Origin: a virus
Taxonomy: Duplodnaviria > Caudoviricetes
DNA: 64,000 nt
Strand: one strand, 5' to 3'
IMG/VR virus record: IMGVR_UViG_3300021255_002539
Coordinates: 256,001 to 320,000 of that record
Shown here: one piece after another, positions 7,036 through 62,137 of the stretch
Layout: each line of letters opens with the position of its first letter
How positions within the stretch are numbered: position 1 is the first letter of the stretch
The notes under the pieces: generated by a model
What the model saw: only the letters and a program-made list of their open reading frames with translations
What the model was told of the DNA's origin: nothing
Database searches by the model: none
Translations under genes and position numbers: made by a program

Positions 7036-7455
7036 TCAACCCTCCTCCATCACTATGTCGTCGTTGTCGTTATTTCCTCTGGTTTCGTCTTCCCATTCCA
7101 TGCCTCCGCTTCCGCCACCACCTTCCTTGACGGCGTTGCGAATCTCGTATATCCACGGAATCGCCATGTTGATGTTGGGTTGGTTGAAGAAGCACTCCAA
7201 GTCCTTGAGGACTGGGTCTTCCTCACCCCTTTTCTTTTTCTTCTGTTGCTTTGACGAATCTGGTTTCACGACGTTTTTGTAGATTTCATAGAGCCACGGA
7301 AGCACCATGTTGATGTTTGGTTGGTTCAAGAAGCATTGGAGATCCTTGATCTTTGGATCGAATCCACCGGAACCCCTGTTCTGAACCTTCTTTCCCTTCT
7401 TGCTTGATGTTGTTCCCATGACACGCACACACATGTGGTTTGTTGTTCTTCTCAA
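7036..7455 (-). CDS. Hypothetical protein with internal duplication (start uncertain)
   Basis: KDL.CF.NQPNINM..PW.YEI occurs twice. Confidence 0.65.
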   Translation of the reverse strand: MRRTTNHMCVRVMGTTSSKKGKKVQNRGSGGFDPKIKDLQCFLNQPNINMVLPWLYEIYKNVVKPDSSKQQKKKKRGEEDPVLKDLECFFNQPNINMAIPWIYEIRNAVKEGGGGSGGMEWEDETRGNNDNDDIVMEEG

Positions 7456-7499
7456 GATATATTTACATTTTTTATGTTGAAAAGGTAAATACTTCTGTC

Positions 7500-7760
7500 A
7501 TGAGAAGAAGAAGGGAAACAATACAGAACATATCTTGCTTTGTAGCCGGGATGTCGGTTGCGATTATCCTGTAGTTCGCCATTCCACAGTTGTTTGCGCC
7601 ATCCAAACACAACAATCCACCAGAACCAGATGCTTTGAGCACAACCACCAATGTAGTGGATATCGTAGATATCGCATACACCAATAGACCAGCAAAACCA
7701 AATGCCGATTGGTTCAAGGACAATTCGACCTATATTTGGGAGAATTGGAAGTTGAGGTGA
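7500..7760 (+). CDS. Small single-TM protein, 86 aa (1 TAG), absent from the ORF track
   Basis: MRRRRETIQNISCFVAGMSVAIIL*FAIPQLF..WENWKLR-TGA; GTAAATA at 7485-7491. Confidence 0.55.
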
Positions 7761-10139
7761 TTAGTTTGATGAGATTACACCATCCTTTAGGTGTAGTCTA
7801 TAGCCAGATTCGATTCCCCATTTGGTGTCCATTGGAACCTGGGACATGTAGATGTTTGGCAGATACCAGTCGTGGTATACCCCAGCAAATGTGTTGTCGT
7901 TGAAGGCATTTGGATTGGATGTGGTTATTCTGTTTTCCTGCACATTCGTGTTGTAGAGCATATAGTCGCCAAAACTCCCATCTACGACTGTATCCAGGTT
8001 GTAGAGGTGTTCCAAACCAGTGCCCTAGAAGCAACCATTCTCAAACGAAACCGTCTATGGGGTGTTCGTCAAGCACACATTCGTCAAATTGCCACAATCG
8101 GCAAATGCATTTGTCTCCATCGTGATATTTGGCACTGACGACTTGTCGTTGTTGAAATACACCGCATATAGGTTGGAGCATGAAACAAATGCCATTTCCC
8201 CAATGTATTCCATGCTTGGACCAAATATGAGTTCTGGAATATTGGGGTTGTTTTCGAAAGCATATGATCCTATATGCTGACAATTACCCAGATAGTTCAC
8301 ATCAACATGTTGGCAACCATTGAACGCATAGTCTCCAATGTTCTGCGCACACATCAACTGGTCAGGCTTGTTGAATTCGATGTTTGTTCCAGCAAAGGCA
8401 TATGCACCAATTCCCGAACATGAATATAGCCCATCTACACTTGTCAAGGTTGATATGCCAGAGAAGCAATTGTCTGGAATCGAGAATTGGTATCCATCAG
8501 GCCCAGTTGAAGTCGCTATCGTGACATGTTCTAACATACTGCATCCCTGGAACATCGAAACCATAATGGACAGCCGGCTGGCCAATGTTGGTCCGACGTG
8601 AATGTAGGACACCGGGACATTATACATGTCCATTTGGTAGTCCACACCCACATTATCGACATAGAATAAGTTCAAGAATGGCAAGCTGTTGCATCCAACT
8701 ATGGTGTTCGTGGAAAACGACCTCTGAAACTCCAGGTTTACGATGTTGCTCAATCCACTGCAATCAGAGAATTGACCACTCTCCAGATACAACCTTCTGC
8801 TTCCAACCAGTGCCTCGACATCAGATACAGTGTAGACGGAACTATACGATGAAGGGCCAGGAAGTCCAATCCACCTTAGATTGGGATTGTCTGCAAATGC
8901 GTATGCCCCCATGTAGACGCAATTTCTGTCAACCCACAGACCCCTATCCGAATCTGGTCCCCCTTGTTCAGAGAAATTCCCACTCTCACCGAGGTGAGCA
9001 TACCGAAACGCCTCAGTGCCTATCTATGCAATGTTGGCCAGTTCCCCAGACTTTCCATACAAACCCCATCCAATCTTGGTCTCTCTGAATGCTGCACTTC
9101 CTATGATAGAGCAATCACGCAAACCAGTTGCCGACAGAGACACCTTTGGATCTGTCCCACCTGGGGAATAGTCGCCAGAAGTGTAGGAATACCCATCTAC
9201 ACTCGTCAAATTGTAACATCCATCGAACAACCCAGCGCAAATGCTGAAAGTCGTCGAGAAACTGTACATTATGTCAACCTGGTTGATGGTGGATTGCAGT
9301 CCATACAGAAAAAGGCATGTCTATGTTCCACTTTCATCGTATCCAGGTCCCCACAACTCCTCGTTCAATGTGACTTTGCTCAAACAACTTGATGGACCCA
9401 AGTCCCAGACTGTCGATCTAAAGTCGGCATACAGAAGTGTAGTGCAATTGTCCAACCTCAACTCCTGAATGGAACTGCAATAATCAACAGCATCTGGAGG
9501 AAACTGGGTCTGATACTCCAAGTTGAATATCCTCTACAAACTTTCACAATTTGTGAATTGTGAATGGTAATTGCCATATAATAATTGGTCAAATGTAACA
9601 CCATTTGGGCAAAGTGTTACCTCACTTATTCCTTGGCAATTATCGAACGCACTGATGCCCAGGAATCTGCAATCCCCCAAATCAACACTGGTCAAATTCC
9701 TGCAACTATGAAATGCTGCTGCCCCTATGGAAACCACATGGTTCAAGTTCACGACATTTGCCAGACTGGAGCAATTTCCGAAACATTCATCTGGTATGGT
9801 TATTCCACTGGCCAAGGAAATGTGTTGCAATGCTCCGCAAGAGTAAAAGGCCCGCTCGCCAATCATTGAGCAATTCCCAATGTCAACCGTTACATTATAA
9901 TCCCCCATTCCAATGTGTGTATAGGCAAATGCAGATGATCCAATTGCCACACAAGTGTCCAAGTTATCCACACTACTTAAATATGTCCACCCTGTGAATG
10001 CATAGTCGGGCAGGGTCACGCTTTGGGCGACAACAACCCTGTTTACATCCATGCAACTTACACTGGCATCAGACAATGCTTGGGAGATGTCGCCAAGTGA
10101 AGGCGTTGTTCCAAAACTAGTCAGGTTAAGTGTTACCAT
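7761..10139 (-). CDS. BspA-type leucine-rich-repeat protein, 792 aa (5 TAG)
   Basis: Repeated IG..AF..C..L..V units across five in-frame ORF fragments; TAG at 9534, 9321, 9024, 8055, 8025. Confidence 0.85.
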
Positions 10140-10206
10140 TCTACTGTACCTCTTGTTTTCAATTTCTAGAAGTATTTACAATTATTGGTTGAAGTGGCTT
10201 GAATGT

Positions 10207-10506
10207 TCATTCATCTTCTTGCAGGAGGTATAGTAGAAGTGTAATCAGATCGGAGTCAAGGATGTCATCCTCGTAGTCAGACGGTTCTCCAAGTTCTTGC
10301 ATCACCCTGGATTGTTCGTCAAGCTGGTCCAGGTCAACATCCGAGTCGTCTACCTATATGACCTCGTCGGGTGTGTACATCTGCGCCTCCAGTTGTTCGA
10401 TGCTGGGTTCGTAGATGGGGTAGATTTGACGATCTCCGAGGTAGACCGTCACTATGCGTCTTTCCCTAGCATATACTTGCGTGGTTTGTTCGTTCTCTTC
10501 AGCCAT
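10207..10506 (-). CDS. Acidic hypothetical protein, 99 aa (1 TAG)
   Basis: MAEENEQ..TVYLGDRQIYP..DEVI*VDD..QEDE-TGA; overlaps the stop of the upstream gene. Confidence 0.65.
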
Positions 10507-13345
10507 TGTCGTTACCCCCTTCTTGTGGTTCGGATTCGCTTGACTCAGATTCGTCTGCCTTGTATATCAAGTGCTCTATTGCATCGTCGGATATTGTGGT
10601 GTCGGATTCGTATCCAGGGAATTCGAATATCTCGCTGTTCAGGAATTCTGACGTACCATTTGCCTTAACCCCAGGCGTGTCTTCAAGCAGGAACGACCAT
10701 GGGTGGTATACTCCATTGACCTACATCAGTGAATGCGAGTTTTCGTACATCTAGGCGCGACATTTGTGGAAGTCCAAGAAGAAGTCTATGATGGCGTTGA
10801 AGGTGGATTTCAAATCATTTGGTACATATATATCATGTAAATTGTAATCATTAAGTATTGATCTACTATTTCTTGGTTCAATAAACGCCACGAAGTACCT
10901 GTCTATCTCTGGATTTAGCTTTATGAATCCCAATTTATTCTTCTTGATGAATCGTTGAATAGCAATAAAGCTCTTTATGTATTCTATCAGCAAGGACCTT
11001 TCATTGTTCGTCCTATCTATTATGAATTTATTGCGGGTAATGTTCTTCTGCCAGCTTCTAATATCCTTGAACCACGGATTCACCATGTAGTGGAAGAGGA
11101 CATAGCAGTACACAAATGGGTTTTTTTTGACAGCTTCGTTTCTATCGGAACCCGCTGCAATTATCTAGTTGAATTCATTTGCGTCGCTTGTGTATTCATA
11201 TGCATTCCAATTGACAAAATCATTAACACCAAATGATAACAACGAAGTTCCAATGAAATAGATGTGTTTATTGTAGAACTCCTTCAATACCTACAGGTTT
11301 GCATTTCGTATATTTTCGATGTCGGCGTTTATATTGTTGTTCCCATAGGTGTAATCGGTGTCAACTATACCAAAATCTCCATACTAAACAACATCTCCGA
11401 CGCAGTTCCCGTTCTTGTTCCTGTATGTTTGACTATTGGCGTTGTCTGCCCATTGCAACATGTAGTTGGCGTTGAAGTCTTCAGATACAGTGACCAGGGA
11501 GTAGTCATTGTTGTGTACTTCTTTCTCGAACAACCCACCCGCGTAGTTCGAGTTGCATATTATGATGTAGTATTCGTTGTCTCGTTTTATCCCAAGCAGT
11601 TGCTATATATGGTCGTATGTCAGGTAATTGTTTTTATTGATGCTATAATTAACTCCCATGTATATTAGGTTAGATGATGATAAAACGACTTTTGTTTTAC
11701 CTTCTTGATCTTTCAATGATGGAGCATTTATGAACACGACCTTGAGGGGGCATTTGCACTCCTTTATCTGCTGTATCTTCTAGTCTATCGTCCATTCGGT
11801 CCATTCACTTTCGTTTTTGTACAAATACCCTTGTTCGCCGTATTTGGCGTCCAAAGCCGCCTTTATCTTCTTGTGCCAGGGGTTGTCCTCGTTCTTGTAT
11901 ATGTTTGAGGTGTCCAAGTCTGTTGTGCAGTTCAGCTTGAAGTACGCGCACTTTAGGGTGTCTTCAACATTGACAAATATTGGGAACAAGTTGAGACCAT
12001 CATCAGTAATGGGAACATCTCCTTGACCATTCTTTGTCGACACTATTATGCGCTTGTATTCTTCCTCGCCTTGTTCTGTGTCTTTGACGAATGCGAACAT
12101 GTTTGTGAAAACCAAGTCGGGTCTTCCTGGTATTACATATTTGATTTTATTCCTGAGCTTCTTTACATTATTTCGTGTCGTGATGTAGTATTGTGGATAT
12201 TGTGGGAAAGTATTTTTGCGCCAGTTGTTGTAGGATGGAAAGTTGAAGAACAACTGCCTTGGATATTCAATTGTTGGATTTGGTACATTGGCGATGCTGT
12301 CACAAAATGGCTTTTGCGATACTTTCATTTCCAAATTTCCTTGTGAATTTGGTTCATATTCCAACCTGAATGTGCAATATGGAATTGAGCATCTGCCATC
12401 TGATATTGCAACCAGTTCATCATATATGATGTCTATGGTTTTGCCTTTTATAGAATAAGGAGTTGGTGGAGAGAAATTATCGTTTTTTGGGTCCCATGAT
12501 ATTTGACAGCAATCGCAAAGGCAGTCATTTTCTCTATATAGGTTTTCTTGACGATGGAAGGAATAAGCAAATGGAGCATCATCGTACTACCATGCGTTAT
12601 TCCCAAATGGTATTTTCATGGGTTCTAGTATTCTTCGATTCGCAATAGTAGTATTATTGAAGTTGGCCATTTCAATTGGACCATTCAAGTCAACACTTCC
12701 CATGTCAATCACGGTATTGGTTACATCTTTTACTACAAGACCACCTACGATGGATTTTCCCGTAAACACGGAAGCAAGATAAAGGCTCATCTCGCTTTCT
12801 GGGGTGGTTTCATCATTATTAGAGCAATAGTAGAAGTTTGCGTTTGAATTAAAGTAATTTGGTTCGCCTCTTATTGTAATTGTAACATTATATTTAGTGA
12901 AACTTCTTGATATCTTTTCTTGTTCTTCCCATCGCTTTTTTGTAGTTGCCATCGTGGAGCCACACTCGATTACATAAGGTGATATTATCTTGCAATAGTT
13001 CTTTTTATATGTTCTTTTTATGTTTTGGTAATTGTTTGGAAATAATAGGTGATTAAATAAACCAAGGTTAATAGTGCTGTTGTCGGTATATGCGGTGGTA
13101 GTAGCTACACCATGTCTATCGTACTTAGTGTAAATTGTTGTTGTCTCCACATTTGCTTTGTCTTCATATATCATGCTTCCATTGTTTGGAATCAACAATA
13201 TATTGTCACCTGAGTAGTTAGGTGTGTCGTCTGTGTAGGTTTCTGTATAATAGTCACTTGCCCTGCATACATTTGCAAACAATCCATCAGGATAGATTAT
13301 CGTATAAGTTCCAGCCTGCCCATAAGATATAGTTTCACTTCCCAT
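10499..13345 (-). CDS. Large Asn/Tyr-rich hypothetical (putative virion/receptor-binding) protein, 948 aa (8 TAG)
   Basis: Frame read manually from 13345 to TGA 10499; it is interrupted only by TAG; AT-rich. Confidence 0.75.
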
Positions 13346-13359
13346 CTTTCAATCACCTC

Positions 13360-14475
13360 TCATTGGTTTTCCTGGATTATGAAGTAGAATGTGTGTTCGT
13401 CCTTGTTCTCCAGTTCGTTGTATTGCGCCTATGTCAGGAACTGCATGTTGTAGCTGGCCAGATTGCCGAGGTTCTGCACCTTGCGCTCCACCGCCCTCAC
13501 CCGGCTGTCGAGAGCCGAGTCTGCGTCCTCCCTTTGTTCCTGCTCATCCTCAATCATCTCCATCAGTTCAGAGTTTGCCTACGACGAGTGGCCACTTTCT
13601 CCACCACCTCCACCACTTGATGTCGAACCACCCGAACTCTCCAATGTGGAGACTCGGTTCTTCAAGCTGGACACATCCGTCTCAAGTGTCGACACCCTGG
13701 CTCCAATGGAGTTGACTTGACCTTGGATGTCGGTTTGGTTGCTTTGGAGGGTTTCGCAACTGGCGTACAGTGTGTTGAGTCCATCTACCTGGTTGTTCAG
13801 ACCAGCTATGCTTCCCCTGATGGCGTTCAAGTTGCTGTTGAATGTAGATGTCGTGACATATACGCCAGGATCCAGTTCTGTTCCTCCACCTTCTGTTCCA
13901 TTGCGTTCCAGTTCTGCCACTCTGCTTTCGAGGGATGTGACTGACCTGTTCATCGTTCTGACATCCACGCCAATGTTGTTAACGGTCCTTTGGATGGAGT
14001 TTACGCTGGAGGTCAAGGTGGATATGCGCCCATTCAATGTGGATACATCAGACTCCAATGTGGTTATCTATGCGTCAATTTCTGTGACATCCCCCTCCAT
14101 CAGCCCTGTAATGTCCTTCATGTCGGTGACATTGGCAGTGACCTTCTATAGCCTCTCGTACAAGGCGTCTGTCTCGTGGTTGTCCTCGTATTCCTGCATC
14201 TCCCTGGTTCTCAATGATCCATCCTTCACGAACACTCTGTACTTCGTGTCTGGGGAGTTCTCGTCGGTTAGGACGATGTGGTCCCAAGGCCCGTTGTACT
14301 TGCCCGCTACCTTCAGAACATATTCCTTGATCTTGGCGTATAGTTGCTTTGCCCTGATGTCGATGTAGGAATTGATGTAGGCTATGCAGCCCTGAAAGAT
14401 GTGTCCATGTCCGTGTGGGCATGCGCCTGGGTCGGTCTGCCCCGTAGTCAATGTGTTTTCGTCTGATTGCGCCAT
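13360..14475 (-). CDS. Coiled-coil fibre-like protein, 371 aa (4 TAG)
   Basis: RVSTLE heptad repeats; C-terminal LT*AQYNELENKDEHTFYFI matches the common phage LTQAEY..L..KD..T.Y.I motif. Confidence 0.8.
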
Positions 14476-30018: not shown

Positions 30019-31758
30019 TCATCTCTCCAATATCGAGAACACTGGCTTTTCGTTTGGCTGGCATCTCTTGAGAACCTTCTTCCCAAAGTGCTTGTCGTAT
30101 ATTGGCGCATTGTTTGGTCCGCATAGATCAACCCTGGTAACTCCCAGTCCTGCGCAAAGCTTCGCCACGATGTCCTGCGTGTCCTTGTCTCCGTGGACGA
30201 TGGTCAGGTCAACCTTGTTCATCAATGCGATCATCAACTTGCCCAATGCCCGTGGATCTATGTTGTCCATATTGTCGACGACCAACTCGAATGGTGGCTT
30301 GCTTGGCTTTACGACTTCCTCTACTGGCTTCTCTGTCGCATCTGCCACATTTGGCTTTGGTGCTTCGACCACCTTCTTCTCTGGCTCGACCTTGGTTGTC
30401 TCTGCCGTGTTCGGGCAATCCACGCCATAGATGTAGTCAGGGGCGTCCGCGTACTTCTCCGCTAACATGGACTTGGTGTCGTAGGTGTCTTCCTCCTGCG
30501 TGTTGATGACCCTCATGCCATAGTTGTTCTCGCCAGGGATTGGGACAACGCCATCTCTCAGGTGAAGTGTCTGCTTGAATCCACTGTAGTCAACATAGTG
30601 GTGCCACCTGTGGAACTTCCACACGACCTTCGCAATGTCCGGGTAGACTTTCGCCAGCATCTCGCTCTTTGGCTTGGTTCCCTCCTTGGAATAGAACACC
30701 TCTGTGTTGCCACCCTTGACCTTCTGTGTAGTGCATTTGCCAAACAGCGCCCAATTTGCCTGAACAGTACACCATCCGGCCGTGAGCATGTCCAGCGACA
30801 GAATGGTGTCTTCGTTGTACCTGCCCCTCCACCTGAATGGAACATCGTTGCGAATCATGTTGCACGAGTATATTCTGGTGTTCATTGTATATGGCGGGTG
30901 GTACGCATCCATCGTCACGAACATCTTGTAGTTGGGACCGAACATGGCTATGTTGTCGTATCTGTCCACCCAATCCTCGCAAGCAGCAAGCAATGCGCCA
31001 GTCCTGCACTTCACCTTCACATTGTGCCAGAACCAATGGAATCCCTCTGTGGCGTTGTCGTCCATGACCCAATGCCATTTGTAGCCCCGCTTGATGGAGT
31101 CGTCCCACGCGAAGTTTCTGGCTGGACCGGGCCCAGTGGAGTGGGTGGCGTTGTCCCAGTCGTCCAATGTATCGTATTTGTCCTTGTACGACATGTCCAA
31201 CTCCAATATAGTGGCGTACTTGTTGGCGACCTTTTCCTGGTAGGCAGCCACATCTTGTGGTTCGACCACCACGAAATGCGGAACTTCCATTTGGCTCAGA
31301 AACCTGGAGGTATAGCATCGTTCGCTTCTGCTTCTGGACACGATGTATATTGGATATCTGGGGTTCTTGTCCCCACCAACGACCCTCAACTTGGAATACC
31401 ATCCTGGAACAAGCTTTGGATACCAAACAGAAATGGTCTTGGCAGATACGTTTTGGTCGAAGATCTTCTTGGCTAGATCCAAGTCCCCCTCGTTGAACTT
31501 GAAGTCAACTTGAGCATACGGCTTCGCTGCGTCATGGGACTCGTATACTGGCATCTGCCACCACTGGTCCTTCCACTTCGCGTCCCTCGCAGAATCGTCC
31601 TTCTTCGCCTTTTTCTTGGTGGGTTTCTTCTTTTCCACCTTTGTCTTGGCATTGACATCGTATTCCTTCGTCAGGCAAGTGATGTCAGTGCCATTGCGCT
31701 TGTTGAAGTCGTCCAATGCGGCTTGGTCAGCGAATCTGCAAATAATCCTCGTGTTCAT
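30019..31758 (-). CDS. GT-A glycosyltransferase, TET-associated (TAGT/GREB1-like) family; candidate DNA base glycosylation
   Basis: YPIYIVSRSR, VVEPQD...Y, GPGPARNFAWD, HWVMDDN, NTRIYSC, WRGRYNED, GGNT, RWHHYVDY. Confidence 0.75.
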   Translation of the reverse strand: MNTRIICRFADQAALDDFNKRNGTDITCLTKEYDVNAKTKVEKKKPTKKKAKKDDSARDAKWKDQWWQMPVYESHDAAKPYAQVDFKFNEGDLDLAKKIFDQNVSAKTISVWYPKLVPGWYSKLRVVGGDKNPRYPIYIVSRSRSERCYTSRFLSQMEVPHFVVVEPQDVAAYQEKVANKYATILELDMSYKDKYDTLDDWDNATHSTGPGPARNFAWDDSIKRGYKWHWVMDDNATEGFHWFWHNVKVKCRTGALLAACEDWVDRYDNIAMFGPNYKMFVTMDAYHPPYTMNTRIYSCNMIRNDVPFRWRGRYNEDTILSLDMLTAGWCTVQANWALFGKCTTQKVKGGNTEVFYSKEGTKPKSEMLAKVYPDIAKVVWKFHRWHHYVDYSGFKQTLHLRDGVVPIPGENNYGMRVINTQEEDTYDTKSMLAEKYADAPDYIYGVDCPNTAETTKVEPEKKVVEAPKPNVADATEKPVEEVVKPSKPPFELVVDNMDNIDPRALGKLMIALMNKVDLTIVHGDKDTQDIVAKLCAGLGVTRVDLCGPNNAPIYDKHFGKKVLKRCQPNEKPVFSILER

Positions 31759-40305: not shown

Positions 40306-40758
40306 TCACTTGAGCAAGCCTTGAAGAACCTTTGCGCAGAATTTCTTGTCGCAATTCGTGGGAAGCATCTTCATCAAGCTTCCAAAGTCCTTCTTCGTCA
40401 GACTTCTGCCAAGTTGCTCTTCGTTCTTTGCAACCAACTCCTTTATGATTGCCTCAATTTGGTCGTTGGGAATCATGGATGGAAGAAATTCAGAAACAAT
40501 GGCAAGTTCACCCCTTGCCTTCTCCTCCAAGTCTATTCTGGATGCCATCTTCGCTGATTCAATGGAGTCCTCCACCTGCTTTGCGAACTTCTTGAGGCAA
40601 GAGACCACGATTTCCTCTGTGATGTCCTTTCCCTCGTTCACGGTCTTGTTCTTGACGTCAGAAACCACCATTCTGAGGACATCACTCTTCGTGGAATTGC
40701 CCGCCTTCATGGATTGCTTGATTGCATCTTGTATTCTGTCATATGTCTCGCTTGCCAT
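40306..40758 (-). CDS. Stand-alone GatB/YqeY-domain protein
   Basis: I..AIKQSMKA..VLRM...VKN..SIE....R.DL....EL....FLP..KDFG.LMK. Confidence 0.85.
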   Translation of the reverse strand: MASETYDRIQDAIKQSMKAGNSTKSDVLRMVVSDVKNKTVNEGKDITEEIVVSCLKKFAKQVEDSIESAKMASRIDLEEKARGELAIVSEFLPSMIPNDQIEAIIKELVAKNEEQLGRSLTKKDFGSLMKMLPTNCDKKFCAKVLQGLLK

Positions 40759-41257: not shown

Positions 41258-41848
41258 TCAATTTCCCCCTTGCTTGTCGAACGCCCCGTAAAGCTTGAAT
41301 TTCTTGCTTATCTTGTGCGCATCATCGTCCTTGAGGGGCTTGAACCACATACCAACTGTGCAGGTTCCATCTGGGTTCTCTGGCGTCAAGTCAGTCTTGC
41401 AGTGGTCGTTGATGTAGCCATAATCTACACCTTCTACCAGACCCAGTTCCTTGATGGGTTCCTCTGTCTTGGACTTCAGTTGCTCCAGGTTCTTGGCCTC
41501 GCAAATGGTCTTGGTGAAGATGTCGTTGATGTAGCCCTCCCAGATGTCCTTTTGGATTTCAACTGTGACGCTCACTGTATTCCTTGGAAACTGCGTCTTG
41601 ACCTTGAAGTACTTCTCCCCGGCCTTGAACGCCTCCTCTGCCTTCTTGCAGACATCTGGGTGCTTGTATGTGGCTGGCCGACCAGGACGCCACGGATCTT
41701 CTGACAACAGGGTGTCGAACTCGTTGTCCTGCACATTGCCCGACTTCAACATGTTGGTGAAGAATGCCTCTGCGCAATGTCCAACCATTGCAGCCAGTTT
41801 CCCTGGCCTCAGATGAAGGTCTTTTCGGATTATGAATATGCGTCTCAT
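41258..41848 (-). CDS. Peptidyl-tRNA hydrolase, Pth2 type (with central insertion)
   Basis: IIRKDLHLRPGKLAAMVGH, FTKTI, INDHCKTDL, T.TVGM..P, I...F..Y. Confidence 0.8.
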   Translation of the reverse strand: MRRIFIIRKDLHLRPGKLAAMVGHCAEAFFTNMLKSGNVQDNEFDTLLSEDPWRPGRPATYKHPDVCKKAEEAFKAGEKYFKVKTQFPRNTVSVTVEIQKDIWEGYINDIFTKTICEAKNLEQLKSKTEEPIKELGLVEGVDYGYINDHCKTDLTPENPDGTCTVGMWFKPLKDDDAHKISKKFKLYGAFDKQGGN

Positions 41849-41863
41849 AGTGGTTCAATTATA

Positions 41864-41898
41864 CAAAAATCTACACTAGGCGCGAACCTAGTGTAGAT
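41864..41898 (-). terminator. Terminator directly 3' of the tRNA
   Basis: ATCTACACTAGG-ttcgcg-CCTAGTGTAGAT-TTTT, 12-bp perfect stem. Confidence 0.8.
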
Positions 41899-41901
41899 AA
41901 G

Positions 41902-41980
41902 TGGCTGATCCACCTCCTTTGCCACGGAGGACCCAGCGGGTTAGAGCCGCTTGTGCTATTAGGCATTACACTATGGATCA
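41902..41980 (-). tRNA. Amber suppressor tRNA (anticodon CUA), probably Gln-accepting, with non-canonical D and T loops
   Basis: TGATCCA-TA-GTGT-AATGCCTAATA-GCAC-A-AGCGG-CTCTAAC-CCGCT-GGGT-CCTCC-GTGGCAAA-GGAGG-TGGATCA-G-CCA: all four stems pair and CCA is encoded. Confidence 0.92.
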
Positions 41981-42006
41981 ATTGAAACTGTCTCGTTTCT
42001 CATTGC

Positions 42007-42019
42007 CTTCAATTATACG
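42007..42019 (-). promoter_or_regulatory. CGTATAATTGA -10 element for the tRNA (recurring class lacking a clear -35)
   Basis: TATAAT at 42012-42017; same context at about 3011, 19359, 24749, 28882, 29375, 33498, 41858, 54747. Confidence 0.6.
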
Positions 42020-42030
42020 AAATCCCAACA

Positions 42031-45000
42031 TCAGAAATCGCCCAAATCGACAGCATCAGAATCTTGCATCTTCACCGTGTTGTCTGGGGCCATGGATGGC
42101 GCGTTCTGAATCACCATTGCGCTTCCTACTGGTATCTTGTTCACTTCCTCCACATACTCCTAGAGGTTTCCATGTAGTCCGACTGCCGTCTCCTTGACCT
42201 CGGTGAATGTCTTCTCTGAAATCTTGTCTCCACGTATCAAGGCCAGCTTCAACTCCCGTTCCTCCCTGGGCAGTTTTGCGATTCTGTTCTCTGCCTCTTG
42301 CTTGATGTTGTTCACATCGTCGCCCAGTGACTTCAAGTCCTCGTCAGTGACCTTCCCAGGATCCTCAATCAACTTGCCGAGTATAGTTTCGTAGTTCTGC
42401 TCCTGCTTTTTGATTGCCTCCGCCGCCTTGATCTTCGCTTCCGCTATTACCAATGCTTCCTTGCGCTTGGCTTCCTCCTTGAGTTTCCTCTCGCGTTCCT
42501 CCTTTGCCTTGCGCTCCTCCTCTGCTTTTCTTGCTGCCTCTTTTGCCTCCCTCTGGCGGCGTTCCTCCTCTAGCTCTGCCATCGTCTTTGGTGGTTCCAA
42601 TGGGGTGGCGTTGTCGGCAATCTGACCAGGTTTCTTGACAATCGACTGACCTTGCATCTGCGAGGATATTCGCTTCTTGCGCTCGTCTCCGAACGCCACC
42701 CACACCTTCTTGAGTTGGTCCAGGTATCTGATGTCGCCCGTGAACTTCGCCTCGTACTGTGCCTTTTGCATCAAGGGTTGCAGGAGGTCTATGTTCTTCT
42801 GCAGTTCGACATCTGTCATTTCAGACATCTTCCCCCACAGACCAAACCACGTCTTCAGTATGGTGTCCTTCTCCTTGTCGTTGGGAATTCCCAGGCTTTT
42901 TCTGTACTCATCGAGTTTCTTGCGTTGTTTAGAGTTCGCGTTCGAGTAGTCGATGAGCCTCAGTTCCATGTTCGGGAATCTGAGGTACTTCTTCATGAAT
43001 CCAAACAGAAGTGGGGGTCGGAACAGAATCAGGAGTTTGTTGATCGAATCGTCGAGTGCCTGTTTGGACTTCTTGTCCCTGTTCGTGATGAAGTTGCCCA
43101 GTGCGTCCTCCACCCTGTTCCACTGGGGGATTATCTTGAAGGAAATGTACTCCAGGAAGATTTGAGCGAAGGCCCTCTGGGATGGGAGGTCGTGGAACAT
43201 ATTCTTCCAATCGAACCCCCGTATGTTGACGAAGTTGAAGAAGTTCCATGCCAGGCTGGCCAGAGGGGTTGTCTGGATGTCGTCCCCAAAGTCCTTGTCG
43301 AATTTCTTGATTATCTTGTTCTTGACGAAGAACTCTATTATTGGGATGGCGACTTGGATGCTGTTGTGTATTTGGCCAGACGAGAACAGGTCCAGTACGC
43401 CTCCATCGAACATCAGGCTCCTGACATCGCCGTATCTTATCCCAAATGCGGTAATGTCCTTCACCTTCTGGAGGATCCGCATGGTCTCGTACATCCTCTT
43501 GGACTTCCTGGAGGCGGCCTTGGCCTTGTCCAGAATCCCATCCTCTGGCTTGGCGTCGTACTTGCTCAGGTTCTTGTCGTAGTTCAAGAACCGTTCGATG
43601 CCCGCCTGACCCTTCTGAACTGGCTTCTTGAATGCTGACGAGATTTTCGAGACGATGTTCTTGTTGATTTGAATGGAATCCTCGATGCCGAAGGCCAGTC
43701 CAAACTTGGTCTCAACCTGGGTGTTCGCGTTCTCAAGCGAGTTGTTTTCGTCGGTTATCTCGCCCTTTTGGAGTCTGGTGTAGAAGTCTGTGAACCTGTT
43801 CTTGAATATGACGTTCCGTTCAACATCGTACCCACCAACATCGTGGTCGGCCAGTGCAGAGTTCCATTGCTTCCATTGCACCGCATAGTCTGCTATGTCG
43901 AGTTCCTTGGACTTGGTTGGATCCCAGAAACTGGGCTTGCCCAGGTCCTTGCACACGTTTTCGTATATCTCCCTGATGGCCTTCGCCCTGGCCAGTTCGT
44001 ATAGAATTGGGTGCACAGATATCTTCGCCTTGTTCTGCATCCATGTGAATGGCAAGAACCCAGTTGATGTGGTCTCGGCCTCTGCTGGACTGCCGAAGTA
44101 TATGTCTGGGGTCTGGTGTATGGACTCGAATGGGTTCAGTGGTATTATCGTCCTCAAGTCGCTGGCCATCACCCGATATCCAGGGTTCCATCCACTCACT
44201 GGGTCGTACAACAGACCCTGGACATTCTTGAACCTCTGGGACTTGCTGAGTTCGGTTATGTAGATGTCGAGTGCTTGAATCTGTGGCTGGATCGTCTCGG
44301 CGATCTTCCTGGCCTTCAGTTCCTTCAACTTCCTGCCCCTCTCCCTGGCAGCCGCGAATGGGTTGTACAACAAGGGTTGGTTGGCCTTCCATTCGTCCAT
44401 GTGCTAGTCGAGTTCCTGGCTGATGGTTGTCATGTTGGCGTTCAACCTGGCCAGAAGGTCGTTTGTTCCCCTTTCCTTGAGCCTGTTCTCTGTCTCCTCC
44501 CTGGTCGTCTTCTCGTCTACGGCCTGCTCCTGAATCTCCTGCGCCTTGCTGAACGACTTGGAGTACCGCATGTCCACGCTTCGCATTATGGCTCCACGTG
44601 GGATTCCACCTTGGAGCGTGGACTTCGACTGACCCTTACCTGTCTATAGCCCTGGGATGTTCACCATCTGGTTCTTGAAGGTCTTCACGCCCCTGCCAGC
44701 CTTCTTCAGGGCAGCCATGTAGACATTTATCTGACCCTTGGAGTCAGCCATCATGTCCTGGACATTGTTCTGCATCGCCCTCTCTGCGTCTGCCTTCTTG
44801 TTGTTCCAGTGGAGCATCACTTGGGTCGAGATGAAGGTGATTATGGCTGGTATGAGCTTGACTATGAACGACAGTATTGGTCCGACCCCGGGGACAATGC
44901 TCAGAACCCAACCCAGAATCTTGGCCAGTACCCCACCAGCAGATTTCCTCACTACGCCAATCAACCATGCGCCAAACAGCTTCCTCATGGTGTTCCTGGT

Positions 45001-46683
45001 CTCTATTCCATCTCTGATGGCACCCTTCTTTCCGAACAACTTCTTCTTGATGCCCTTGAAGAACCCAGACAATCTGTCGATGAAGTTCCTCAGACCAACA
45101 GTGACGAAGTTGTATATCCCCAGACCAATTGACTTCAGTGTACTCCATCCAGGTATTGGAACCCCGAATATCGTCATCTATGAACCATCGTTCTTGGGCA
45201 TGTACGCCTATGACCACTTGTTCAGGGCGAATCTGGTCAGACCTATCAGAATCAACGCTCCCAGGGCGAACACCATGAACTTCCCAATGCCACCAAAGAA
45301 CATTCCAAGCAGGGCATTGGCCTTCGCCTTTGCCTTCAACATGAATATCTGCCTTTGGGTCTTCTTCAAGTTCTTGGCTATTTCAGACTCCCCCTTGTCG
45401 ATCTTCTTCATCTGCTGGCCCAACCCCTTTTGGATTGCGTTGTAGTTTGGGGAGAACGCATTCACGAACTTCTTGTTTTGCAGTGTCTTCTGGAGGTTGT
45501 TGTGTATCTTGCCCAATGTGGACACTACGCCAGCTCTGGTTATGGAACCACCTTCAGCCCCAGGTTCCCGAATCGCACTGGGCAATTGGGTGTCCTCTGT
45601 TGGGCCGTGTGGTTGACCCAATTGGTGTACATGTCCACATATTGGGCAAGTGCACAGACCATTTGACGCCTTTTTTGTTGGGGACACATCAATCTTCGAC
45701 TGCTTTTGATCCACCTCTGGAATCTTTGTCTTCTCCAGACCCTTGGATTCCTTCGCAAAGAGGGATATGTCGTTCTGGATTTCCTTCTCGTATTGCTTCT
45801 GTTCCTTCTCCAGTTCCCTCCATTGCTTCCCATCCTGTTCCACAACTTCTGGCTGTGTCTGATCAATTCCCCCAATTTGATTACTACCCTCGATTTCACT
45901 TACCAGTTTTCTGAGGTCAATCTGTTTTGGTGGCTTGTTGTCCTGTAACTTGACTTTCTGACCTTGTTGAATTGCCTTGTTCAACTGGTCTATGCTGGAC
46001 GAGATGCCCTGTTCAACGTCTCCAGACAAGTCCAGTGTCTTGAGCATGGACTCAATCTGGCTCAATCTCTCCAGTTTCCATTGCTCGTCCTCGTCAGCCA
46101 GATTCCCCAATGCGTCTACTGTGCCTTGACCCTGCTCGGTTAATGTCTTGTTGAGGTTGTCGATGTCCTGTTGCTGACCTTCCTTGGACTTCGCCCATTC
46201 CAGTTTCCTTCTCTCGTATTCCCTAGAGAGGTTCAGCCTAACCTGTAGAATGGCCGTCTGAAGTTCGTCCATGAAGTCCAGCACCACCTGCATTATGTCG
46301 CAGTTGTCTGGCGTGAGTGTCTTGAGGACGACTTGCTTTGTCGTCTGCGACACCATGGCGGAATCCACATTCTCTGGGGTGAGATTGGCTTGATTTGCCT
46401 TTATCACTTCTGAGATTTTGTCGACAGTCTTGGAGTCTTTGACTATGTTCAGAAACTTCTCGTCAAGCGACCGATAGATGGTCCTAGGCAAGTATTCAGA
46501 ATTTGCGCCCTATTGGGTCAATGCGCCCTGTGTAAAGTCGTCGAACAGCCTGCCGAGTCCATTGTAGATGTCCTGCATGTGCTTTGTGGAGGACACTGGC
46601 TCCACGCCACCAACAAACGAAGTGAAGTTCTTCGTTGCTGAATTGGCTACTGCCTACAGGTCTTGTGTTTTTGGCTAGGACAT
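42031..46683 (-). CDS. Large helical protein, 1550 aa (8 TAG), tape-measure/baseplate-hub-like
   Basis: Four ORF fragments are in one frame; TAG at 46675, 46654, 46510, 45208, 45178, 44644, 44404, 42160; coiled coils and a central hydrophobic/amphipathic region; GTAAATA upstream. Confidence 0.75.
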
Positions 46684-57300: not shown

Positions 57301-57729
57301 TCATTTACAAGTCAAAAGCAATTTCTTGACTTTTACAACATCTTTTTCCTTACACACTACATTGCAAACCCATTGATTCTGACTCTCCTTGTTGTCCATC
57401 ACATATCCACGGTGGACAGGACATACATGACCGTTCGACAAAGTGGCTATTGGATATTCAATTTTTGACAGCCTTTTTGCCACCATGTATCTCATCTGTT
57501 TTTTGTCAAGTCGGATATTAAACCACCCTTTTCGTATCAAAGGCAAATCCCATATTGAGGACAATCTATAGTCGTCTCCAATATGCCTTGCTATTGTCTT
57601 TTGCTCAGTAAGAACCTTTTCATAGGGAATGCCAAGGCAATATGCAATGCACCTTGATGTGCAGTTTGTTCTGGCATCTTGACTATTCGGCGTCAGTTCA
57701 ATGTATTTGAAATATTGCTTGTTTCGCAT
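57301..57729 (-). CDS. Hypothetical protein, possibly papain-like Cys/His fold
   Basis: NCTSRCIAY..GIPY..V, GHVCPV..G...D. Confidence 0.55.
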   Translation of the reverse strand: MRNKQYFKYIELTPNSQDARTNCTSRCIAYCLGIPYEKVLTEQKTIARHIGDDYRLSSIWDLPLIRKGWFNIRLDKKQMRYMVAKRLSKIEYPIATLSNGHVCPVHRGYVMDNKESQNQWVCNVVCKEKDVVKVKKLLLTCK

Positions 57730-59138
57730 CAGAACTCCTTTTCGATTTCGTCAAGGTCCGCCAGCCACATGTCCTCTATGCTCTCTTTCTGGGTGGTCTT
57801 GATGAGTTCCTTCAATCCCTTGATCTTCTCTGTCAGCTCAGCCATCTTCTCCTTGGTGATTGAGGACATCGGCATGTTCAAGAGGTAGTTGAAGGAGCCG
57901 TCCTTTGGGACAATCTTGTCGGTCTTCTCCAACTGCTTGACGATATCATCCTTCTTCTTGTTCTTGATGTGGATTGTCTCGTCAATAACGCCCTTGCACC
58001 AGACATACTTGGAGACATCCAACTGAATCTCATCCATGTACTTGTTGAGCAGATAGGTCTTGCGCTTCTTATAGTATTCAAGACGGATCTTGATAAACGC
58101 ATCCAGAATCTCCTTGATGTTGTTGAACTCCCTGATTCTGTTGTTCTCGTCGATGCAATTCAACTGCTCGTTCAGTGGCTTCGCCAGGTTGAACACCTTT
58201 ACCCAACTGTCAATGTCCTTGTTGCTTTCGAAGAACACGCGCTTGACCTTGATGGTGAACTCAAACTTGTCGGTCTTTGGGTCAGAGAGGTCTTCGTAGT
58301 CCTCAATAGTCCCCTTCTCAACAAGATTGTCCAGAACCTTGATGTACGCCGCGTAGGTGTAGGTGATTGGTATCTCGGAAATGTGCAAAGTGTTGGAATT
58401 GACCTTCTCCACCACGCCATAGTTGACGACCTTGGTGTTGGTCTTCCCATCCGCATCCTTTTCCTTCACCAATTTCGTCTCGCCAGCAAATCCCTTGAAC
58501 CATGGCAATGCGTTCTCCACATGCGGAACCTTGTCAGCCTTGTTGAGGATTGCCCTGATGTACTTGAGGATGTCCTTGGGGTTGCGTGGGTATATTGTTG
58601 TCTTCCACCCAGTGGAGATTCCATCTGTGCCATTGAGGAACAGAATTGGAAATATTGGCATCATGTATTGAGGCTCTATTTCAGTGCCCTCGAACACTTG
58701 TGGTTTGCACAAGGCTCTGTCGGTCTCCATGAACAACTTGGAGGAGATTGGGGATATTGAGCAATATGTATAACGGGGGGCGGCTGCGCTTCCTGCTCCA
58801 CTGAATCTGGTGCCGAAGTTGCCATGTCCCTTCACCAATGGATAGTTGTTGCTTCCGACAAAGGATGCGGCCATTGTGTCCAGAACTTGAGTCAAACTCG
58901 CCTCTCCATGGAGGTACTCGGTGCATTCAGCGACAGAAGAAGCCAGTCTTGCGGTCTTGTTCTCGCTTCCTGGGTTTGGGAATTTCTTGAACAATGTGTA
59001 CATCACCTTGCGTTGGGACAGCTTCATGCCATCCACATAGGAGGCAATCTTGCGCAGGTTGTCGTATGCTCCATATGAAGGGGCGTCGTTTTCGTAGAAT
59101 TCAGAAAAGGATATCGTGTTTTTATCTGCATTGCTCAT
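57729..59138 (-). CDS. Type IIA DNA topoisomerase, breakage-reunion subunit (T4 gp52-like)
   Basis: DGMK.SQRK, Y.HGE.SL, G.FG.R, AAPRY, EP....P..P....NG..GI..GW. Confidence 0.93.
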   Translation of the reverse strand: MSNADKNTISFSEFYENDAPSYGAYDNLRKIASYVDGMKLSQRKVMYTLFKKFPNPGSENKTARLASSVAECTEYLHGEASLTQVLDTMAASFVGSNNYPLVKGHGNFGTRFSGAGSAAAPRYTYCSISPISSKLFMETDRALCKPQVFEGTEIEPQYMMPIFPILFLNGTDGISTGWKTTIYPRNPKDILKYIRAILNKADKVPHVENALPWFKGFAGETKLVKEKDADGKTNTKVVNYGVVEKVNSNTLHISEIPITYTYAAYIKVLDNLVEKGTIEDYEDLSDPKTDKFEFTIKVKRVFFESNKDIDSWVKVFNLAKPLNEQLNCIDENNRIREFNNIKEILDAFIKIRLEYYKKRKTYLLNKYMDEIQLDVSKYVWCKGVIDETIHIKNKKKDDIVKQLEKTDKIVPKDGSFNYLLNMPMSSITKEKMAELTEKIKGLKELIKTTQKESIEDMWLADLDEIEKEF

Positions 59139-60178
59139 TGTTTGTCGTCTCCAATTTCAAAGTGCATTGTGTCGTCTTCCAGAAGTTCTGGTGGGATGTT
59201 GTTGTATGTGAATATCGCTTGGTAGACACCCTCGTCGTTTGGTGGGAAAAGACCACCGCGATAGTGCGAATCCACATAGAACACCATCTTTCCTGACTTG
59301 TACAGTCTGTGGTTCAAGAGGTTGTCCCTCGATATCTTGTATATATCGAATCCACCATCTTCGTCCGTATGCTTGTTGAAGCAGGACGTGGACAACTTCA
59401 TCTTTCCATATGACTTCAGCCTCTCGATGTCGTCGTGGCAAAACAGATACACTCTGTCTGGATAGTTGAACAAGTCCTTGCTTGATCTCGGAACCAATCC
59501 GCGTTGACGAATCTTGTTGAAGTATCTGTGCGGCGCCACGTGAAACAGGTTTTCTGACAAATCCAAGTCTAGTCTGGAATACCTCGTCTCGAAAGACAAG
59601 TCCAAGATTCCAATCTTGTCGTAGTTGAATGGTTGTAGGGTTCTGTTGTCGGACACCTTGTCGGCAGAATCCAAGTTCCATCCACACACATACATGCTTC
59701 TCGACAGTTTCTCAACCAACTCCCTCCAATCAACGAAGTCTGAGACGAAATATGGCAATATGAATTCCACTATGTGGGAATCAGCCGAGCATAGATGCCA
59801 ATCAACAACCCTGTCCTGCCCATGTCTGGCTGGGGGATGCTTCAATACATCACACATCTTCAACTTGACCAACGTGGAATCCATCTCGTTCAAGAAGAAC
59901 TTCTTGAACTTCGCAACCAACTTGTCCAATGGGTATGTGGCAATGAGGGCTTCGTCCAATATGATGTATTCTGAATCCATCTTCCTCATCGCATTGGTCA
60001 GATTCAATGGGTGGTTCAACGAATGGAAGCAAAGTCCACATGGATGCAATGAATCGTCAGACTTGCCACTCTCAAGCAAAAGTCTGGAGGCCGGAACGGA
60101 CCTGGTTTCGTACACTGTTCCACATTTCCAATAGAAATCAGAGTATTCGTTCAATCTTTCTTTGACGTCTTTTCTCAT
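59135..60178 (-). CDS. Protein with C-terminal ART-fold domain, located between the topoisomerase subunits
   Basis: LFHVAP...KIRQRGLVP.S..FNYPDRVYL, FYVD, FTYNNIPP. Confidence 0.6.
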   Translation of the reverse strand: MRKDVKERLNEYSDFYWKCGTVYETRSVPASRLLLESGKSDDSLHPCGLCFHSLNHPLNLTNAMRKMDSEYIILDEALIATYPLDKLVAKFKKFFLNEMDSTLVKLKMCDVLKHPPARHGQDRVVDWHLCSADSHIVEFILPYFVSDFVDWRELVEKLSRSMYVCGWNLDSADKVSDNRTLQPFNYDKIGILDLSFETRYSRLDLDLSENLFHVAPHRYFNKIRQRGLVPRSSKDLFNYPDRVYLFCHDDIERLKSYGKMKLSTSCFNKHTDEDGGFDIYKISRDNLLNHRLYKSGKMVFYVDSHYRGGLFPPNDEGVYQAIFTYNNIPPELLEDDTMHFEIGDDKQ

Positions 60179-60193
60179 GGTGATTTGCGTGTG

Positions 60194-62137
60194 TCAAACC
60201 TTCTCTATGTCCAAATTATACTCGCGGAGATATTGCTTTCGGATGTCAGTCTTGTTGGAGTTCAGCCAATCGTCCACCAAAACCCCATCCTTTTCGTCCA
60301 AACTAAAGTATTCCAGGAAGTCCTCTATGCCATTTGGGGACGAGTCGAACAGGTGCTGGAATTGCTCTGGACTCCACGACCCAAGACCCTTGAAGTAGTT
60401 TTTCTTGTATTTGGATATGTCGTGGTTGGCTTCATATGCCTTGTATTCGTCCAAAGTGTAGAACGCCTTGAATATCTTGGTCATCTTCTGGTCCGACCAC
60501 AATATCACAAGGGGTGTTCTCAATCTGGCAATCTTGTGCATGTTGAACAGCTCCTTGCCAAACTTCATCCACCACCCCAGGTATATCATCTGAATGTGCA
60601 GTCCATCTATGTCACTGTCGTTCGCAAGCACAATCTTGTCGAAGTTCAGGAACTTGTTGTCGTTCTTTGATGGGTCTATGCCAAGCAATGTGGTTATGTC
60701 AGAGAATTCCTTGTTCGAGAGCATTTGGGACACCTTGCAGTCCCACACATTCAATGGAACTCCACGTCCAGCATAGTATCCAATGCCTTTTCTGCCCAGA
60801 GCTTGGGAAATCCCGGTAGCGGCTGAAAACCCCTCCGCTATGATGAAATACTTCTTGTCGTTCCCTGTTGGCGATATGTACTTCGTGGCGTCTATCTTGA
60901 CTTTTGACCGACCCGCCTGCTTCAACGCCACGCGCTCCTTGACTTCCTCCTTCAACTTGAACGTCTCAACGATTGGGTCGAGGATGTATTCGTTCTTGAG
61001 AATGTTCTTTGCTAGCTTATTCCAATCAACAGAATCACCGAAGTACTTGGTTATCTCGGATGGCAGGTTTGTCAAGGTCTCCTTTGTCTGAGAGTCGAAC
61101 TTCAGGTTGGGGAAGTCCCGAAGGAACACAACCATGCTCAGACGGTTCTTGATGTCAGCTGGCTTGATTGTCTTGTACTTCTTCGTCAGCTTCTCCCTCA
61201 CAGGTCCAACCACTTTGTCAACTATGTAGTCGATGTGGGAACCACCACGGGTCAACGCCAGTCCATCTACATAGGTGAAGAAGTTGAATTCGTCAGAATC
61301 GTTGGGGTAGATGCCAATGAACCCTCGGTCGAATGTCTGGAAGGTGATGTGCTTGCTGAACAGATTGAGGAACGCCCGTTCGTTGACATTGACCTGTTTG
61401 CCGTTGAGGGAGAACTTGATTCCAGGAAAGGTGATGCCCAGGCAAATCAACCTCTGACGCATTAGTTCGACATATACATCCTCCACCTCGGTCATGTTGA
61501 ATCTGGCGAAATCAGGGTAGAACTTCACTCTGACTCCATGCGACTTGGATTCAGAAACCTCGGTCTGTACGGTCTCCAGGTTGTTCTTCGCAACCACCTT
61601 GCACATCTTCTTGCCATCGTCAGAAATGCCAACGAACTTCTTGGAGAAGATGGATGTGCATTTGGAGCCGAGACCATGTGAGCCAATCGTGGTCTTGTCG
61701 GCAGAATCCTTGAAGTTGGATCCAGAGAACAGGCGGGTCCACGCAATCTCTGGCAGGTAGGTGTTCGCAATCTTCTGCTTTTCCTCGTTGGACATTCTGC
61801 TGTCGGTGATGTCCTTTATGTCCTTTCGGATTACTGGGATGCCAGGCCCATCGTCCTCTATGTAGATCCACTCCTTGTCCATGACGACCTTGACCTTGCC
61901 CTTGCCCTTGCATGTCTTGATGAGGACGTCGATGCAGTTGTCTAGAACCTCGTCTATGATCTTCCTGAATGCGGGGATGAAAGTGACTTCCTTGTATTCG
62001 ACGCCCTCGCCATTCACCATGAACATCTTCTGTGTGAGTGGTGACATGCTGCCAATCCACATCTGTGGTCTCAATATGATCTGCTGTATGCCACTCAGCG
62101 CCTCAAAGTCTTCTGCTTGCTTGTTTGTCTTCATCAA
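60194..62137 (-). CDS. Type IIA DNA topoisomerase ATPase+TOPRIM subunit (T4 gp39+60-like)
   Basis: RP.M.IGS, DEV.DN..D, DDGPGIP, G.HGLGSK, FDSQTKE, AEGFSA, RG.PLN, DSDIDG, YFKGLG. Confidence 0.93.
   Translation of the reverse strand: MMKTNKQAEDFEALSGIQQIILRPQMWIGSMSPLTQKMFMVNGEGVEYKEVTFIPAFRKIIDEVLDNCIDVLIKTCKGKGKVKVVMDKEWIYIEDDGPGIPVIRKDIKDITDSRMSNEEKQKIANTYLPEIAWTRLFSGSNFKDSADKTTIGSHGLGSKCTSIFSKKFVGISDDGKKMCKVVAKNNLETVQTEVSESKSHGVRVKFYPDFARFNMTEVEDVYVELMRQRLICLGITFPGIKFSLNGKQVNVNERAFLNLFSKHITFQTFDRGFIGIYPNDSDEFNFFTYVDGLALTRGGSHIDYIVDKVVGPVREKLTKKYKTIKPADIKNRLSMVVFLRDFPNLKFDSQTKETLTNLPSEITKYFGDSVDWNKLAKNILKNEYILDPIVETFKLKEEVKERVALKQAGRSKVKIDATKYISPTGNDKKYFIIAEGFSAATGISQALGRKGIGYYAGRGVPLNVWDCKVSQMLSNKEFSDITTLLGIDPSKNDNKFLNFDKIVLANDSDIDGLHIQMIYLGWWMKFGKELFNMHKIARLRTPLVILWSDQKMTKIFKAFYTLDEYKAYEANHDISKYKKNYFKGLGSWSPEQFQHLFDSSPNGIEDFLEYFSLDEKDGVLVDDWLNSNKTDIRKQYLREYNLDIEKV

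Follow-up and report, generated by a model that had tools for sequence, protein, structure and literature searches.

A probable amber-decoding, glutamine-type tRNA with a non-canonical elbow in a phage that reads TAG as glutamine

We analyzed a window of 64,000 nt (positions 256,001 to 320,000 of the IMG/VR virus record IMGVR_UViG_3300021255_002539) and found that it carries, on the minus strand, the gene of a tRNA with a CUA anticodon, tRNA(CUA), whose D-loop and T-loop both lack the usual elbow motifs. Judging from sequence comparisons, this is very probably a working amber tRNA, and there is a good probability that its two loops pair with each other in a short helix. That both hold jointly, so that an amber-decoding tRNA-Gln has a D-loop/T-loop (D/T) helix as its corner, is the explanation we favor, and we regard it as likely.

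A cloverleaf tRNA gene without the usual elbow motifs

The gene and its parts, identified from the cloverleaf and its covariation, lie as follows.

41902..41980, minus strand: tRNA gene with CUA anticodon, Gln-type acceptor end, encoded CCA and non-canonical elbow
41942..41944, minus strand: CUA anticodon, which reads UAG
41957..41967, minus strand: D-loop of 11 nt without the GG motif; GCC at 41964-41962 is one proposed helix strand, with U 41965 optional
41918..41925, minus strand: T-loop of 8 nt without UUC and without the G53-C61 closing pair; GGC at 41923-41921 is the other proposed helix strand

The feature is a real cloverleaf tRNA gene. Sequence, fold and a stem scan confirmed what a preliminary description had reported of it, namely a cloverleaf with U1:A72, G2:C71, G73, CCA and the anticodon loop CU-CUA-AC. 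The 79 nt comprise a 7-bp acceptor stem (with U1-A72 and G2-C71), a 4-bp D stem and 11-nt D-loop, a 5-bp anticodon stem with a 7-nt loop, a 4-nt variable loop, a 5-bp T stem with an 8-nt T-loop, G73 and the encoded CCA, and all 21 stem pairs are intact. The folding energy, taken alone, is unremarkable (z -1.33). Since an independent ENA assembly (L231) contains the identical 79-nt sequence, we rejected an assembly error.

Several canonical tRNA features are present in the sequence, including U8, A14, A15, U48 (R15:Y48), C32, U33 (which is C33 in homologue G001) and A37. The retention of U8, A14, A15 and U48 suggests a normal inner core. Absent from tRNA(CUA) are G18 G19, G53-C61 and the 7-nt T-loop UUCRANY. 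When we scanned the 414 kb for stems only, ignoring any D-loop or T-loop consensus, we recovered 22 strict cloverleafs, 20 of them with CCA; these 20 were 19 tRNAs with ordinary anticodons (18 in the tRNA cluster) and tRNA(CUA) itself. This whole-genome scan found no second CUA cloverleaf in the complete 414-kb genome.

Evidence that TAG encodes glutamine

The genome is that of a jumbo phage, a complete record of 414,060 bp with terminal repeats. Reading TAG as sense (Q) raised its coding density from 0.81 to 0.90, and the longest frame opened in this way spans 3880 aa and 20 TAGs. Coding density is a crude measure, and since reading TGA as sense likewise raised it, to 0.88, it is an alignment test that carries the weight for TAG = Gln. 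In this test, TAG codons of relatives stood opposite Gln residues of the phage at a rate of 15.1 per 1000, compared to at most 3.0 for any other residue, and a Q was faced in 9 of the 14 columns where at least two relatives share TAG. By alignment with its relatives, the phage is shown to use TAG as Gln. TAG is found inside 81 of 147 ORFs of at least 300 aa, as crudely called.

We also noted other features of the window and the genome. TAG-rich long frames lie at 7761-14475 of the window, where GC is lower (792 aa with 5 TAGs, 948 aa with 8 and 371 aa with 4). The type II topoisomerase A and B genes (window 57729-62137) are both free of TAG, with a 347-aa ORF without a Pfam match between them. 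A TET-associated glycosyltransferase gene (window 30019-31758; PF20691, E 4e-35) suggests DNA base modification, and the phage encodes a tmRNA (G000:C1:368037-368369) with the tag GNDYRMAA.

One genomic slot with several amber tRNA alleles

The surroundings of the tRNA gene are arranged as follows, in the order of the minus strand.

42031..46683, minus strand: 1550-aa gene immediately upstream, with 8 in-frame TAGs; it marks the slot on its 5' side and is a likely client of the tRNA
42012..42019, minus strand: -10-only promoter-like motif CGTATAAT of putative function, found before the slot in relatives whichever tRNA is present
41984..41999, minus strand: short leader hairpin GAAAC...GTTTC, found before odd and canonical alleles alike
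41864..41898, minus strand: intrinsic-terminator-like 13-bp hairpin plus U run, the hairpin itself at 41898-41869
41858..41865, minus strand: second YGTATAAT motif, 10 nt before the Pth2 start
41258..41848, minus strand: Pth2 peptidyl-tRNA hydrolase gene without an internal TAG
40306..40758, minus strand: stand-alone YqeY gene, which also neighbors alleles without the odd elbow

The tRNA had been described as possessing its own TATAAT and terminator. The terminator is clear, and the TATAAT is present at 42017-42012 but lacks a -35 hexamer, so that it went unlisted in a consensus promoter scan. The genome holds 89 copies of YGTATAAT compared to about 30 expected (roughly threefold), and 42 of these 89 occurrences lie outside ORFs, although ORFs leave only about 10% of the genome uncovered. 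The phage has sigma-70-like promoters and Shine-Dalgarno-like leaders, which we take to argue against a Bacteroidota host.

We considered an amber-gated Pth2 and rejected it, because the Pth2 gene contains no TAG. No odd-elbow amber tRNA was found near the Pth2 homologues of distant phages, and a search with YqeY found no cellular relative. One related phage (L241) has two Pth2 genes 1.6 kb apart, at 5001-5582 and 7153-7776.

Relatives of the phage under study (G000) were found via gyrase B and Pth2. In these relatives the slot again follows the upstream gene directly, the promoter motif and usually the leader hairpin precede it as they do here, and in all of them it holds a CUA tRNA, of differing build. 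The odd elbow occurs in G001 and L234, both of which were found without the elbow sequence as a required pattern. G002 and L232/233 carry a canonical amber tRNA, as does L239, where only the 3' end of one is visible; the L237 allele has an A18-type corner; and the alleles of G003, L240 and L242/243 have a long variable arm, that of G003 being 80% like the annotated tRNA-Gln of crAssphage cr113_1. The CUA tRNAs in the slot of G002, G003, L232/233, L237, L240 and L242/243 are visible to tRNA finders. This positional match with the amber tRNAs of relatives is the strongest argument for function: given that kin have ordinary amber tRNAs in the same slot, behind the same promoter, tRNA(CUA) is very probably an amber decoder.

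We propose that this one genomic slot can hold any of several interchangeable alleles, of which tRNA(CUA) is one. In trees of the flanking genes, the odd alleles were not grouped (G000 paired with L240 at 100/99 and with L239 at 100/98, and G001 with L232/L237 at 99/98), and odd and ordinary alleles, mixed as they are on these trees, look exchanged between lineages in a cassette-like manner.

Some alleles of the slot have further peculiarities. An A1.A72 mismatch is present in canonical-type alleles (L232:4558-4636, L237:3572-3648 and G002:C1:268611-268687), C33 is found in L232 and G001, and the 3' end reads CCC instead of CCA in G002 and L237. In G003, an apparent 5' half of a Gln-type tRNA (L141, ~10576-10620) lies between the promoter and the long-arm amber tRNA and is perhaps a remnant of allele replacement. 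Directly behind the canonical long-arm amber tRNA of L240 lies another stem-loop (L240:3556-3660), which has a CUA anticodon loop and long hairpins and is not a normal cloverleaf. At L191:1102-1248 (also L199:294-440), the odd-elbow gene is followed after 7 nt by a second CUA tRNA, in which ARAGORN places a 72-nt intron that has tRNA-like arms of its own.

What might drive such variety is a separate question from decoding, and one answer, compatible with an amber decoder, is diversifying pressure, wherein rebuilt loops escape a reader of the canonical T-arm motif. This reader could be a homing endonuclease that cuts tRNA genes, acting on DNA, or a host defense that attacks tRNAs, acting on RNA; T4 SegB, for example, recognizes and cuts tRNA genes at a conserved T-arm motif (PMC2330249). 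At least four designs share one slot, the odd alleles are ungrouped on the flanking-gene trees, and a free-standing endonuclease gene, with a zinc finger and Phage_endo_I (PF05367), lies directly 3' of the amber tRNA in G001, G002, L234 and L237.

L099:421-1407, L234:3596-4453, L237:3757-4749 and G002:C1:267518-268492: endonuclease gene

However, the endonuclease is absent from the slot of the phage under study, belongs to a different family from SegB and is also found beside a canonical allele (G002). Its target and the defense system are only hypothetical here, and neutral exchange would yield the same trees, so we offer diversifying pressure as a tentative possibility. A 36% relative of the slot endonuclease is located in the main tRNA cluster of the phage (G000:C1:362175-362918).

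The D-loop and T-loop probably form a short antiparallel helix

The D-loop UGCC (41965-41962) and the T-loop GGCA (41923-41920) are complementary at the positions given in the preliminary description. We compared five distinct odd-elbow sequences, from this phage, G001, L234, L170 and L191/L199, and found that an antiparallel D/T match of at least 3 bp is present in all five variants, with one double change and modest statistics. Its 3-bp core, RCC:GGY, is kept in 5/5 homologues, while the fourth pair is U-A, U-G, U-G, C.A and U.U across them and is broken in two of the five; thus, of the 4-bp kissing pair once proposed, the core is conserved and the fourth pair is optional. The constancy of CC:GG is partly circular, as L170 and L191 were retrieved with a pattern demanding CC and GG.

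Covariation between the loops of homologues, which had been suggested as a check, was found in part. In the four homologues that share one length, both partners have changed at nine pairs, eight of them in cloverleaf stems and one in the D/T match, where the third pair (41964 with 41921) goes from G-C to A-U; CC:GG never varies. The cloverleaf covariation in these four was equaled in 0/500 shuffles, a control that ignores relatedness. The D/T match of tRNA(CUA) alone is only modestly unusual (shuffle P ~0.035), the per-sequence values for odd elbows range from 0.004 to 0.40, and a D/T score as high is found in 1 of 34 canonical phage tRNAs. A test of own against crossed pairs gave 1/120 for five motifs and 1/6 for three independent lineages, with the loops chosen after inspection. 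Predicted D/T duplex energies were -3.4 to -8.0 kcal/mol in eight odd-elbow tRNAs, compared to -0.5 and +1.0 kcal/mol in two canonical ones.

We also assessed 80 crAss-like loci before TerL, a closely related and redundant sample, most of which have canonical amber tRNAs. ARAGORN missed 14 of the 72 CUA tRNAs in these loci, and 12 of the 14 have a D/T match. These 12 represent three other, independent designs, UGCU:AGCA, GGCU:GGCC (extendable to 7 bp) and CGAC:GUUG, with matches of 4-7 bp that are unlike the jumbo-type in sequence and involve no CC/GG swap. Taken together, the D/T statistics of the crAss cases and the jumbo-type are suggestive only.

In a normal elbow, G18 contacts U55 and G19 contacts C56 (PMC7912444, PMC4810234), and these 18:55 and 19:56 contacts do not make an antiparallel helix. 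A compensatory swap of G-C polarity, as the preliminary description had it, and a kissing helix are therefore different shapes, and because the covarying pair is in antiparallel register, it is not predicted by a plain swap; that part of the description is not supported as it was worded. The alternative would be a normal fold with C19-G56 in place of G19-C56 and with C18 against G55, the rest of the complementarity being incidental. Counted from the D stem, CC does occupy the usual place of GG, G-U-G-G can be read as G53 U54 G55 G56, and both CC and GG are invariant. But this leaves the adjacent G-C to A-U double change unexplained, position 58 would be A, G, G, A and U, which leaves no conserved 54-58 pair, C61 is lacking, the T-loop is 8 nt long, and the crAss odd elbows have a D/T match with no swap. 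Under another numbering of the loops, a G of the D-loop remains paired with a C of the T-loop, which is also the case in the crAss versions and in the tRNA-Gly(UCC) of this phage (GCC:GGC). A short antiparallel D/T helix fits better than a swapped G19:C56, and we consider the swap unlikely.

Both G53-C61 and a fixed 54-58 pair are absent, and their absence normally weakens a tRNA. It could be that tRNA(CUA) is functional with a loose elbow that has no stable loop pairing, and that its D/T match is due to chance or is vestigial; loose elbows occur in tRNA-Pyl or type II mitochondrial tRNAs (PMC7609411). This would accommodate the weak per-sequence statistics, the one canonical tRNA in 34 with an equal score and the loss of the fourth pair. 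It would not account for a 3-bp core in 5/5 jumbo-type sequences and a 4-7-bp match in 3/3 crAss designs, when canonical controls are without a stable D/T duplex, and we find it improbable.

BLAST of three odd-elbow genes against GenBank phages gave no match, an elbow-free pattern run on IMG/VR returned only the two homologues already known, and a strict pattern had no match in GTDB genomes.

A likely route through host enzymes

The bacterial Gln identity elements G73, U1-A72, G2-C71, G10, U35 and A37 are present in tRNA(CUA), while G3-C70, G36 and U38 of the same set are missing, with A3-U70, A36 (forced by CUA) and C38 instead (PMC9976931). That this is an amber-decoding tRNA of Gln type, as originally suggested, is well supported by the TAG = Gln genome and by the canonical amber tRNAs in the same slot of relatives. 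A genome search found no phage gene for GlnRS/GluRS, a PylRS-family enzyme, GatB or a release factor (PF00749, PF01409 and PF02934 without a match). With none of these synthetase genes found, tRNA(CUA) would have to use host enzymes. As kin also use ordinary tRNAs in the slot, the earlier idea of orthogonality is unsupported.

One form of that idea is a phage kit: YqeY of the phage would read the odd elbow, with Pth2 serving it, and the tRNA would stay apart from host factors. Pth2 and YqeY are indeed encoded just downstream, and GatB-type tail domains contact the tRNA corner. However, YqeY is also a neighbor of the canonical allele in L232 and of the A18-type allele in L237, and G002 and G003 lack it, on which grounds we rejected it as a dedicated partner of the odd tRNA; with the three Pfam families named above missing too, such a kit is quite improbable.

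Returning to the amber decoder with a helical corner, we envisage that a small transcription unit would run from the YGTATAAT motif to the terminator, and that the transcript would mature through 5' processing by host enzymes, the CCA being already encoded. Host machinery, either GlnRS or GluRS/GatCAB, reading U1-A72, G2-C71, G10, U35, A37 and G73 would then charge it with Gln, and it would read UAG in recoded genes in competition with host RF1. The L-shape would keep its usual core contacts, U8-A14 and A15-U48, while the corner G18/G19-Psi55/C56 would be replaced by a 3-bp antiparallel Watson-Crick helix of D-loop RCC with T-loop GGY, to which a fourth pair would be added in some homologues. 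Elbow recognition by RNA machines relies on stacking against a flat base pair (PMC4810234), a surface that the end of the short D/T helix might supply.

A decayed or non-decoding allele (a pseudogene, decoy or recombination site), with UAG read by a host near-cognate tRNA or a co-infecting phage, would explain why motifs used by the ribosome, RNase P and modification enzymes are missing (PMC4810234), but it is very improbable: the 21 stem pairs are all intact, compensatory changes are numerous, diverged homologues retain CUA and CCA, and TAG occurs in 81/147 ORFs of at least 300 aa with no other CUA tRNA.

Relation to known suppressor tRNAs

Literature searches, with most subscription papers outside their reach, returned no description of a natural D/T-helix suppressor. 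Suppressors whose normal corner is replaced by a D/T double helix were reportedly selected in the laboratory (Kotlova, 2007); the libraries are said to have used an 8-nt T-loop as well, and the products to be engineered E. coli tRNAs that work in vivo. Compared with these engineered suppressors, tRNA(CUA) is natural, of Gln type and a suppressor predicted from sequence. If its helix is real, it would be the natural counterpart of a corner so far reported from laboratory selections, and it would allow a test of how far bacterial translation depends on the near-universal elbow.

E. coli supE (glnV44), a tRNA-Gln body with CUA, inserts Gln via host GlnRS. Both supE and tRNA(CUA) join a tRNA-Gln body to CUA, but supE keeps the canonical elbow, G3-C70 and U38. 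The code-15 phage Sup-CTA tRNA-Gln (Borges et al.; e.g., KNV54_gt01 of crAssphage cr113_1, NC_055896.1) shares with tRNA(CUA) the anticodon, the Gln-type acceptor end, a TAG = Gln genome, the lack of a phage synthetase and a slot shared with canonical alleles of kin. Unlike it, tRNA(CUA) has no D-loop GG, no T-loop UUC, an 8-nt T-loop and an 11-nt D-loop, and it is missed by ARAGORN and Rfam.

There is also a likeness to tRNA-Pyl (PMC7609411), which has CUA and is without G18/G19 and the T-Psi-C motif; unlike tRNA-Pyl, tRNA(CUA) has a 2-nt acceptor/D linker, a 5-bp anticodon stem, a large D-loop and a 4-nt variable loop. We rejected a tRNA-Pyl identity given that the 1-nt linker, 6-bp anticodon stem, small D-loop and 3-nt variable loop are all lacking and no PylRS-family gene was found. 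As for a Jade-type code-change module, which combines a suppressor tRNA, a synthetase and a release factor, neither a GlnRS/GluRS/PylRS-type synthetase nor a release factor was found here.

Detection by tRNA finders and altered corners in other tRNAs

tRNA(CUA) was not called by ARAGORN at default or at thresholds down to 50%, and Rfam gave no RF00005 match to it at the gathering threshold or at E<=10, so the expectation that tRNA finders would easily miss it was correct for both. They probably miss it because the corner of the L-shape is rebuilt as a short double helix. Borges et al. (10.1101/2021.08.26.457843) found TAG suppressors in just 40% of the phage genomes with recoded TAG, and their guess was that tRNAs of non-canonical build had escaped notice. 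tRNA(CUA) is a concrete example of an overlooked suppressor, for which kin with an ordinary tRNA in the same slot are built-in controls, and its rebuilt corner is a testable reason why many recoded phages are seemingly without an amber tRNA. We would raise, as a speculation that may well prove wrong, that phage amber suppressors have repeatedly and independently evolved a ribosome-accepted D/T-helix corner that escapes T-arm readers (homing endonucleases or host anti-tRNA defenses), and that this hidden class makes up a real share of suppressor-less recoded phages and offers a natural scaffold for engineering.

Several tRNAs of the phage clade with ordinary anticodons also have D/T matches, of 3-6 bp, and the D/T-helix design may be one end of a range. 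In the main tRNA cluster, outside the window (G000:C1:361964-370952), many tRNAs have altered corners, with the T-loop GGCAGCA in Gly(GCC), Gly(UCC) and Lys(CUU), or with C55; several of them are missed by default ARAGORN, and some have 3-5-bp D/T matches. In the crAss slot, the amber tRNAs of L307/L319 are missed by ARAGORN, and several amber tRNAs (L256, L261, L280, L307) have a bulged base in the T stem.
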